IMG/VR virus record: IMGVR_UViG_2511231131_000001
Direction: 5' to 3' (one strand)
DNA: 64,000 nucleotides
DNA from: a virus
Lineage: Duplodnaviria; Heunggongvirae; Uroviricota; Caudoviricetes
Below are positions 29,617 to 30,232 of the stretch, one piece after another; position 1 is the first letter of the stretch; every line of letters begins with the position of its first letter. The position numbers and the translations under genes were made by a program. The notes beneath the pieces are model-generated. The model worked only from the letters and a program-made list of their open reading frames with translations, was not told where the DNA came from and made no database searches.

Positions 29617-29949
29617 TTAGTTACCGCTGATAGCGCGGTTGTAATCATTAACGTTGCGATTCTTCCTGTTAATCCCCATCAGCATCGTTTCTGTATCGAG
29701 GATATACGCTGGCAGATCATCAAAATATTCACTGCTAAACTCTGGCATCCTGCACATAAATGCACTTTTTGGGGCAGGGTGGTTAACCTTTGTCGGCGTC
29801 GGCGTTAAATTCGCTGATCGACTCCCGGAGCAACCGCTGAGTGTCAGCAGGAATACGCTGGCGAACATTACCCGCCGCAACAAGTTGTTTCTGAACTTCA
29901 GCTTTTCGTTCCATTTGCCTGTCAGCATACTTGGCTTGTTCTGATTCAT
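29617..29949 (-). CDS. small lipoprotein (o-spanin-like, overlapping the upstream gene)
   Basis: Lipobox FLLTLSGC after a K/R-rich n-region; Pro/Thr-rich mature part; overlaps 29783..30232 in another frame. Confidence 0.45.
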   Translation of the reverse strand: MNQNKPSMLTGKWNEKLKFRNNLLRRVMFASVFLLTLSGCSGSRSANLTPTPTKVNHPAPKSAFMCRMPEFSSEYFDDLPAYILDTETMLMGINRKNRNVNDYNRAISGN

Positions 29950-30232
29950 TTTTCACTTCCTGGCTGTGAAAATGTTGCTCTGCTTTGTTCATCGTCTCAA
30001 TGGTCTGGTTAAGATCCATTATTGACTTATCACGTTCCTTAACAGCCTGATCAAGACTGCCAATTTTCTCCATGGCTTGCTTTAGCTGATGACGTTCCCA
30101 CGCAAACCCAGCACCAACAAGTGCGCAAATCAGAACAAGAACACCAGTAGCAGCAAGTTTCTCCTTCAAAGACAAAGCTGTTTTTAATGTAGAAAAGAAT
30201 GACATGTCTTCCTCCTGAAGAAAAATTATCAA
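29783..30232 (-). CDS. membrane-anchored coiled-coil protein (i-spanin/Rz-like)
   Basis: N-terminal TM helix LAATGVLVLICALVGAGFAW followed by charged coiled-coil region. Confidence 0.45.
   Translation of the reverse strand: MIIFLQEEDMSFFSTLKTALSLKEKLAATGVLVLICALVGAGFAWERHQLKQAMEKIGSLDQAVKERDKSIMDLNQTIETMNKAEQHFHSQEVKNESEQAKYADRQMERKAEVQKQLVAAGNVRQRIPADTQRLLRESISEFNADADKG

Follow-up and report, generated by a model that had tools for sequence, protein, structure and literature searches.

Within a 64,000-nucleotide (nt) stretch of the virus record IMGVR_UViG_2511231131_000001 (hereafter the window), which represents a P1-like phage-plasmid, the overlapping minus-strand genes ppfA and mlp encode a membrane-anchored helical protein and a lipoprotein that very probably form the two-component spanin of this P1-type element, as judged from their sequences. 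The gene order on this strand is upfC, upfB, ppfA, mlp, upfA, a weak terminator-like hairpin, oriR, and repA (Table 1). The 2.4 kb surrounding the pair are 95-100% identical to P1, P7, SJ46, RCS47, and other punaviruses, and equally (95-100%) to the same region of 733 plasmid records, mostly from E. coli. PpfA is 99.3% identical to its P1 counterpart, from which it differs by one substitution (I45M), and Mlp likewise carries a single substitution (W23L). The pair is the already known spanin of P1, predicted in 2007 and catalogued in 2018; we accept the spanin reading, and as a finding it is ordinary. What is new here is the profile-level link of both halves to the LysB and LysC proteins of phage P2, the conservation of the pair in five lineages, and its tail-tip neighbors.

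Table 1 Features of the ppfA/mlp locus (window coordinates; aa, amino acids)
Feature	Position	Strand	Basis and remarks
ppfA, predicted inner-membrane subunit (i-spanin), 140 aa	29783..30205	-	Open reading frame and ATG start; type-II inner-membrane protein, helical periplasmic domain
Shine-Dalgarno AGGAGG of ppfA	30211..30216	-	Sequence; 5 nt 5' of ATG
Single transmembrane helix LAATGVLVLICALVGAGFA, ppfA codons 17-35	30101..30157	-	Kyte-Doolittle 19-residue mean 2.35
mlp, predicted outer-membrane lipoprotein subunit (o-spanin) precursor, 110 aa	29617..29949	-	Open reading frame; mature part 71 aa from Cys40
Shine-Dalgarno-like AGGAAG of mlp, inside ppfA codons	29956..29961	-	6 nt 5' of mlp ATG
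Lipobox L-S-G-C of Mlp, Ser at +2	29830..29841	-	Regular-expression scan; Cys40 codon 29830-29832
Mlp Cys66 codon, sole periplasmic cysteine of the PpfA/Mlp pair	29752..29754	-	Invariant 'MC' in 5/5 lineages
Dual-coding overlap, 167 nt, PpfA 86-140 / Mlp 1-55, mlp in +1 frame	29783..29949	-	Coordinates
upfC, PAAR-type tail spike tip, first gene of cluster	31042..31326	-	Pfam PAAR E 1e-5; cryogenic electron microscopy
upfB, baseplate 'tripod' protein	30245..31033	-	phrog_1559; cryogenic electron microscopy; maximal open reading frame to 31090
upfA, function-unassigned last gene of cluster	29213..29605	-	phrog_1453; start 11 nt after mlp
Terminator-like hairpin and T-run between upfA and oriR	29175..29197	-	Pattern scan only; weak, 5-bp stem

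The maximal open reading frame (ORF) around ppfA spans 29783-30232 on the minus strand and comprises 149 codons opening at a TTG (30232), and a sequence-only reading of the window had taken this 149-aa frame as the gene. The frame exists, but translation probably begins at the ATG at 30205, which a perfect AGGAGG precedes by 5 nt, and this start gives the 140-aa protein annotated in P1. The corresponding Shine-Dalgarno sequence is AGGAGG, GGGAGG, or AAGGAG in the four other lineages compared here, namely Cronobacter phage JK004 (L004), a Salmonella plasmid contig (L006), an IMG/VR contig (L007), and a Logan contig (L009), which together with the window make up the five lineages referred to throughout. 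The same reading had described an N-terminal transmembrane helix followed by a charged coiled coil, of which the helix and the charge hold and the coiled coil was judged solely by heptad a/d occupancy (0.75-0.88 over residues 29-77). Residues 17-35 form the only stretch of PpfA that exceeds 1.6 in hydropathy, with K8, K14, and K16 on the N-terminal side, and given the net charge of +2 ahead of this stretch the protein is predicted to adopt the N-in/C-out topology of a type-II membrane protein. The periplasmic domain of 104 residues is 36% charged and contains no cysteine. AlphaFold2, run on an 11-sequence alignment (mean predicted local distance difference test score, pLDDT, of 70), modeled a helix at residues 13-110 and another at residues 120-138, joined by a linker at 111-119 (AAGNVRQRIP).

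Mlp contains a single match to the pattern [LVI][ASTVI][GAS]C, the LSGC at residues 37-40, which follows the hydrophobic segment VMFASVFLLTL. The lipobox Cys is invariant in all five lineages, where the residue at +2 is S or Q. Processing at this site would leave a mature N-terminus of C-S-G-S, with no Asp at +2 and a Pro/Thr-rich start (NLTPTPTKVNHPAPK), and with Ser at +2 sorting to the inner leaflet of the outer membrane is expected. The second cysteine, Cys66, aligns with a Cys of P2 LysC. A purine-rich Shine-Dalgarno sequence and the ATG of mlp stand at the matching position in each lineage, and the ATG at 29949 with its Shine-Dalgarno is the only start common to all five. Met1 of P2 LysC aligns with Mlp Leu24, which is a TTG in the window (29878-29880), an ATG in the Salmonella lineage, and no start codon in JK004; relative to LysC, Mlp carries an N-terminal extension of ~23 residues (29878-29949). 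A long n-region rich in Lys and Arg is present in every lineage, with the type of residue kept and the sequence not. Either start yields an identical mature lipoprotein and retains the overlap with ppfA.

The overlap of the two genes encloses even the codon of the Mlp lipobox Cys, and mlp runs 166 nt past the ppfA stop codon. The description of a lipoprotein with an LSGC lipobox and a Pro/Thr-rich mature region, starting inside the upstream ORF in a different frame, is thus supported, and the possibility that the lipoprotein might start past the overlap was checked: from ATG 29949 or from the TTG at codon 24 alike, the gene overlaps ppfA. Across the lineages, whose PpfA is as little as 29% identical to that of the window, the +1-frame lipoprotein ORF comprises 109-111 codons in all five, and the overlap measures 164-179 nt in the four others. 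Those four all retain the lipobox Cys, the second Cys, and the C-terminal motif DL.xYIxD..T.L...N.KN..VN.YN. In the segment that encodes Mlp only, 29 of 51, 27 of 43, and 25 of 40 between-lineage substitutions occur at third positions of the mlp frame. Nucleotide identity between lineages is 75-78% in the overlap versus 59-61% in the sequence that encodes PpfA only, and within the overlap it is mostly third positions of the ppfA frame that change; the PpfA C-terminus is thus the more constrained product, with the Mlp signal peptide and linker tolerating change. These comparisons show that both frames are genes and that their dual coding is under selection. The lipoprotein frame could in principle have been a chance ORF within and behind ppfA, as many spurious overlapping ORFs lie nearby (for example, an antisense ORF of 96 aa at 29654-29944) and in the PGAP-type annotation of many plasmids mlp is missing or cut short. 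Set against the conserved length, cysteines, and C-terminal motif, the third-position bias, the conserved start signals, and the homology of Mlp to LysC described below, this explanation retains next to no probability, and we regard it as refuted by the comparative data.

Public databases also hold ORFs of 193-195 aa that appear as PpfA-Mlp fusions. These arise from single-base deletions within the overlap at no fewer than six (>=6) different junctions, such as EVK|MNQ in the A5 run at ~29950-29954 and KAEV|RNNL, verified in the DNA of GCA_045582405.1 (L005:3001-3588). By cluster look-up they amount to a few dozen contigs, most of them short-read Logan assemblies, that form no lineage; sporadic inactivating mutations or errors in assembly are the probable cause. 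Programmed frameshifting was rejected as their source, as the junctions are DNA deletions at many sites and the overlap contains no in-frame canonical slippery heptamer.

Scanning the full 64 kb in six frames for lipoboxes returned the mlp ORF and one other, at 36668-37495, and no competing candidate for an outer-membrane lipoprotein besides Mlp. The second ORF (plus strand, 275 aa) has the signal MKKTLISAAIILGSLCLTG|CD, in which Asp at +2 predicts retention in the inner membrane; it is probably P1 Plp, an identification drawn from approximate map position relative to P1 alone.

Both proteins are related at the profile level to the overlapped spanin of phage P2. PpfA matches phrog_89 (E 1.2e-25; residues 21-139 against profile positions 3-137 of 143), and Mlp matches its own small family, phrog_30284 (E 2.6e-77), and phrog_456 (E 2.8e-5), to which two further Mlp lineages also match at ~1e-4. 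A scan of reference spanins identified phrog_89 as the family of P2 LysB (5.8e-61) and phrog_456 as that of P2 LysC (1.7e-31). In the reciprocal direction P2 LysC matches phrog_30284 at 5e-4, and BLASTP aligned Mlp with P2 LysC at 37% identity over 68 aa (E 1e-7) in an alignment that spans the signal peptide, the lipobox, the Pro-rich segment, and a common Cys-x-Met-Pro motif. The match of PpfA to phrog_89 reflects more than composition, since P22 Rz, a lambda-type protein with a transmembrane segment and a coiled coil, gave no match to that family. An hhalign comparison of the PpfA alignment with the single P2 LysB sequence was non-significant (E 0.056), so the link to LysB/LysC rests on the PHROG profiles and the LysC BLASTP alignment. 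On the strength of these alignments, both halves of the P1 pair are assigned as remote homologs of the halves of the P2 spanin.

Beyond these families, relatives were sparse. A tblastn search with PpfA against 50,697 phage records recovered P1-like phages alone, and a HMMER search against 1.84 billion representative proteins gave 39 matches, nearly all of them fragments from P1-like elements. PADLOC returned no match for the pair, and a PDB sequence search found no relatives of PpfA or Mlp. The locus of one distant relative, P0108, was absent from the viral, genome, and metagenome contig collections searched and was recovered on a 1.2-kb Logan contig. P0120 (130 aa, E 2e-4), a weak relative of PpfA, is encoded on a 5.2-kb Logan contig (L008:1632-3002) after two small multi-transmembrane proteins and is followed by a separate 92-aa lipoprotein (lipobox LPGC) that abuts it by one base. 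This locus looks like a holin-spanin cassette of the 'separated' architecture, with homology too weak to lean on.

The pair has a published record as a spanin. In Table S1 of Kongari et al. 2018 (PMC6139136), P1 gp064 (PpfA) appears as an overlapped i-spanin and gp063 (Mlp) as an overlapped o-spanin, and the accompanying SpaninDataBase assigns them to a separate family, 'P1', that also covers P7 and was first identified by Summer et al. 2007. The remarks on Mlp in that table read 'Too long signal sequence' and give LipoP cleavage at the 39th position, in agreement with the lipobox located here. Bednarek et al. 2022 name ppfA and mlp as the P1 spanin genes, 'in yet another unlinked operon', their function being a prediction. 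The P1 reference names stand for 'possible periplasmic function' (ppfA) and 'membrane lipoprotein precursor' (mlp), and the RefSeq label for mlp is now 'Rz-like spanin'. In Bednarek et al. 2022 and in Table S1 of a 2025 P1vir/hfq preprint the labels are swapped, with ppfA called the o-spanin and mlp the i-spanin. With the lipobox in Mlp and the transmembrane anchor in PpfA, PpfA is assigned as the i-spanin and Mlp as the o-spanin, which agrees with Table S1 of Kongari et al. 2018.

Every sequence hallmark of two-component spanins (Summer et al. 2007; Kongari et al. 2018) that was tested is present in the pair: an N-terminal transmembrane domain with N-in/C-out topology, a charged helical periplasmic domain, a lipobox, predicted sorting to the outer membrane, gene overlap, and a periplasmic Cys. 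The spanin architecture proposed by the sequence-only reading accordingly stands, with the entry in the 2018 catalogue and the matches of both halves to the P2 families in agreement.

The genes around the pair provide a second context. The upfC-to-upfA cluster is tightly packed, with gaps of 8, 39, and 11 nt, and its order is kept in JK004, L006, and L007. A cryogenic electron microscopy study of P1 published in 2026 (PMC12810830) identifies UpfC as a PAAR-like tail spike tip and UpfB as a 'tripod' attached to UpfC. The P1-style upfB start (ATG 31090, 281 aa) overlaps upfC by 49 nt and is probably too long; the start kept in JK004, L007, and MH422554 is Met20 (MLEKDYQL, ATG 31033), 8 nt past the upfC stop codon. 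As UpfC and UpfB form a membrane-piercing tip (PMC12810830), the packing and conserved order of the cluster would also suit a role of PpfA and Mlp as functional parts of the tail-tip module, either in DNA delivery across the envelope at entry or as proteins carried in the virion. We consider such a role highly improbable: the structural study names almost all virion proteins and never PpfA or Mlp, a signal-peptide lipoprotein and an N-in anchor target the envelope of the producing cell and not a cytoplasmically assembled tail, and both proteins are homologous to LysB/LysC.

On the other side of the cluster, the replicon at 26822-29076 (iterons, repA, and oriR) is not that of P1, with RepA 42% identical and the DNA unaligned by megablast, and the flanks on either side of it are 97-99% P1. 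It corresponds in type to MH422554 ('RepFIB replication protein A') and includes five ~21-bp iterons (TTGACTRTRCRCGATTT...) and a GATC cluster at ~28930-29170. Upstream of upfC, the interval 31327-31440, with the upfC cluster on one side and the divergent uhr-hrdC-dmt operon on the other, contains a C1-repressor operator, ATTGCTCTAATAAATAT (plus strand; P1 Op68/Odmt), which lies ~100 nt 5' of upfC.

Late timing of ppfA and mlp expression would follow from the lambda Rz/Rz1 model. Expression in the lytic cycle is favored because the pair closes a tightly packed same-strand cluster that opens with two virion genes. In the table of a P1vir RNA sequencing preprint, ppfA, mlp, and upfB stand at 0 at 10 min and at 3.1, 1.5, and 4.0 log2 fold change at 20 min, values that are non-significant; this likewise non-significant pattern resembles that of lyz, prt, and sit, unlike that of early genes such as ssb and cre.

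Several observations weigh against the assignment of ppfA and mlp as a spanin. A motif for Lpa-type late promoters, built from six annotated P1 late promoters, has no occurrence 5' of upfC, upfB, or ppfA (elsewhere in the window its minus-strand occurrences are at 5010, 13270, 24353, 43388, and 45093, and the one on the plus strand is at 24273). The P1 annotation at ppfA predicts sigma-70 promoters alone (P1ppfA and P2ppfA), and our scan for sigma-70 promoters missed those annotated in P1 and gave no good match before upfC. In a genome-wide CRISPR interference screen (PMC10695390) ppfA and mlp were non-essential for plaques, with an efficiency of plating of 0.24 for mlp and 1.3 for ppfA. At the protein level, PpfA reaches 19 bits in the NCBIfam model phage_LysB (TIGR03495) versus a cut-off of 92.75, Pfam yields sub-threshold coiled-coil noise for PpfA and no match for Mlp, and the AlphaFold2 model of Mlp, which was folded as a monomer alone, is of low confidence (pLDDT 56). 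From the conserved ATG, the Mlp signal peptide would be unusually long, with 39 residues and a 27-residue basic n-region. Finally, tblastn with P1 Lyz and LydA-E found no match anywhere in the 64-kb window, and oriR and repA lie just downstream of the pair, which upholds the earlier remark that the genes sit by the replicon and apart from any recognizable holin/endolysin cassette.

The 19-bit score marks PpfA as a remote relative of LysB and no equivalog. Plaque formation despite knock-down is expected for spanins in some laboratory conditions, though it offers no positive evidence. The unlinked position is no objection to a spanin role, since the T4 genes pseT.3/pseT.2 lie unlinked to t and e and yet complement lambda RzamRz1am (Kongari et al. 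2018), and the spread of P1 lysis genes over several unlinked operons is a known property of P1.

The promoter and knock-down data also fit a different function, in which PpfA and Mlp would be an envelope module expressed by the prophage, transcribed from sigma-70 promoters in the lysogen and serving superinfection exclusion or lysogenic conversion in the manner of the outer-membrane lipoproteins Cor, Llp, and Bor. The pair adjoins the plasmid maintenance region, its annotated promoters are of the sigma-70 type with no late promoter among them, the cluster has no Lpa motif at its 5' side, and plaques still form on knock-down, all of which such a module would accommodate. We nevertheless give it very little credence, as both proteins are profile-level homologs of the P2 lysis pair, an exclusion lipoprotein needs no obligatory overlapped type-II partner and yet five lineages keep the two genes together as one unit, the genes ahead of the pair in the cluster encode virion parts, which are made late, the P1vir table records no early induction, and PADLOC, as noted above, finds nothing.

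Within the preferred spanin assignment, we also give little credence to the idea that the placement behind upfC/upfB and the basic N-terminal extension of Mlp (~23-27 residues) are functional rather than accidental. If they were, the consequence could be regulation unlike that of ordinary spanins, for example delayed or gated export of the o-spanin, or alternatively a second envelope role tied to the tail tip, in entry or in exclusion; expression in the prophage state from the predicted sigma-70 promoters would be compatible with this.

As a spanin, the pair would act in the last step of lysis along the lines of the lambda Rz/Rz1 model, from which we infer complex formation, disulfide dimerization, membrane fusion, and late timing. 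PpfA, the i-spanin, would be held in the inner membrane by its N-terminal helix and would extend a helix-linker-helix domain of ~100 residues into the periplasm. Mlp, the o-spanin, would be made with a signal peptide, receive lipid on Cys40, be cleaved by signal peptidase II, and pass to the inner leaflet of the outer membrane, probably as a homodimer linked by a disulfide through Cys66. Both proteins would accumulate late in their respective membranes, and binding between their conserved C-terminal parts may bridge the periplasm and pass through the peptidoglycan mesh. Once the products of the unlinked P1 holin and signal-anchor-release endolysin genes (lydA/lydB and lyz) destroy the wall late in infection, the PpfA-Mlp complex would be freed to collapse, and the collapsed complex would fuse the inner and outer membranes and release the virions.

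As a discovery the pair matters little, as it stands in the spanin catalogue and in P1 annotations. For annotation, it helps to state plainly which is which, PpfA the i-spanin and Mlp the o-spanin, as many plasmid records label the genes 'hypothetical protein' or cut mlp to a 46-aa fragment and the two papers named above exchange the labels. The profile link to LysB/LysC would place the 'P1 family' inside a larger lineage of overlapped spanins. P1 serves as a model phage and is widespread as a vehicle of resistance genes, yet its spanin is still a prediction.

Compared with known systems, the pair is closest to that of P1 itself, where ppfA and mlp have the same Shine-Dalgarno sequences, the same overlap, the same neighbors (upfC, upfB, and upfA), and the same orientation toward the replicon; apart from the adjoining replicon, with its different RepA and iterons, nothing else relevant differs. 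The P2 genes lysB and lysC overlap as the P1 pair does, with the i-spanin gene first, and LysB and PpfA have a common C-terminal motif, [LI]P-x-D-x-x-R-x-L. The P2 pair sits in a lysis cassette, whereas the P1 and window pairs are unlinked, and the numbers of periplasmic cysteines differ, with none in PpfA versus two in LysB and one in Mlp versus four in LysC. Lambda Rz/Rz1 has the topology predicted for the pair, an inner-membrane-anchored helical subunit and an outer-membrane lipoprotein with a Pro-rich segment, and the mechanism proposed here, a periplasm-spanning complex that fuses the membranes. By sequence, PpfA and Mlp fall outside the Rz/Rz1 family, as neither matched phrog_13 or phrog_3198 (the P22/lambda-type Rz and Rz1 families). 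Lambda Rz1 is encoded entirely inside Rz, whereas mlp extends well beyond ppfA, and mature Mlp (71 aa, with a predicted C-terminal helix) is longer than the 42 aa of the P22 Rz1 homolog. The genes of T4 PseT.3/PseT.2 are separated where those of P1 overlap, and no sequence similarity was detected between the two systems. In organization of the proteins, T4 PseT.3/PseT.2 is like the P1 pair, with an i-spanin that has no periplasmic Cys, cysteines in the o-spanin only, and a C-terminal helix in the o-spanin (Kongari et al. 2018). Periplasmic cysteines are present in 507 of 528 catalogued spanin systems, and at least one homotypic disulfide is needed (Kongari et al. 2018), a rule that Mlp Cys66 fits as the sole periplasmic cysteine of the pair.

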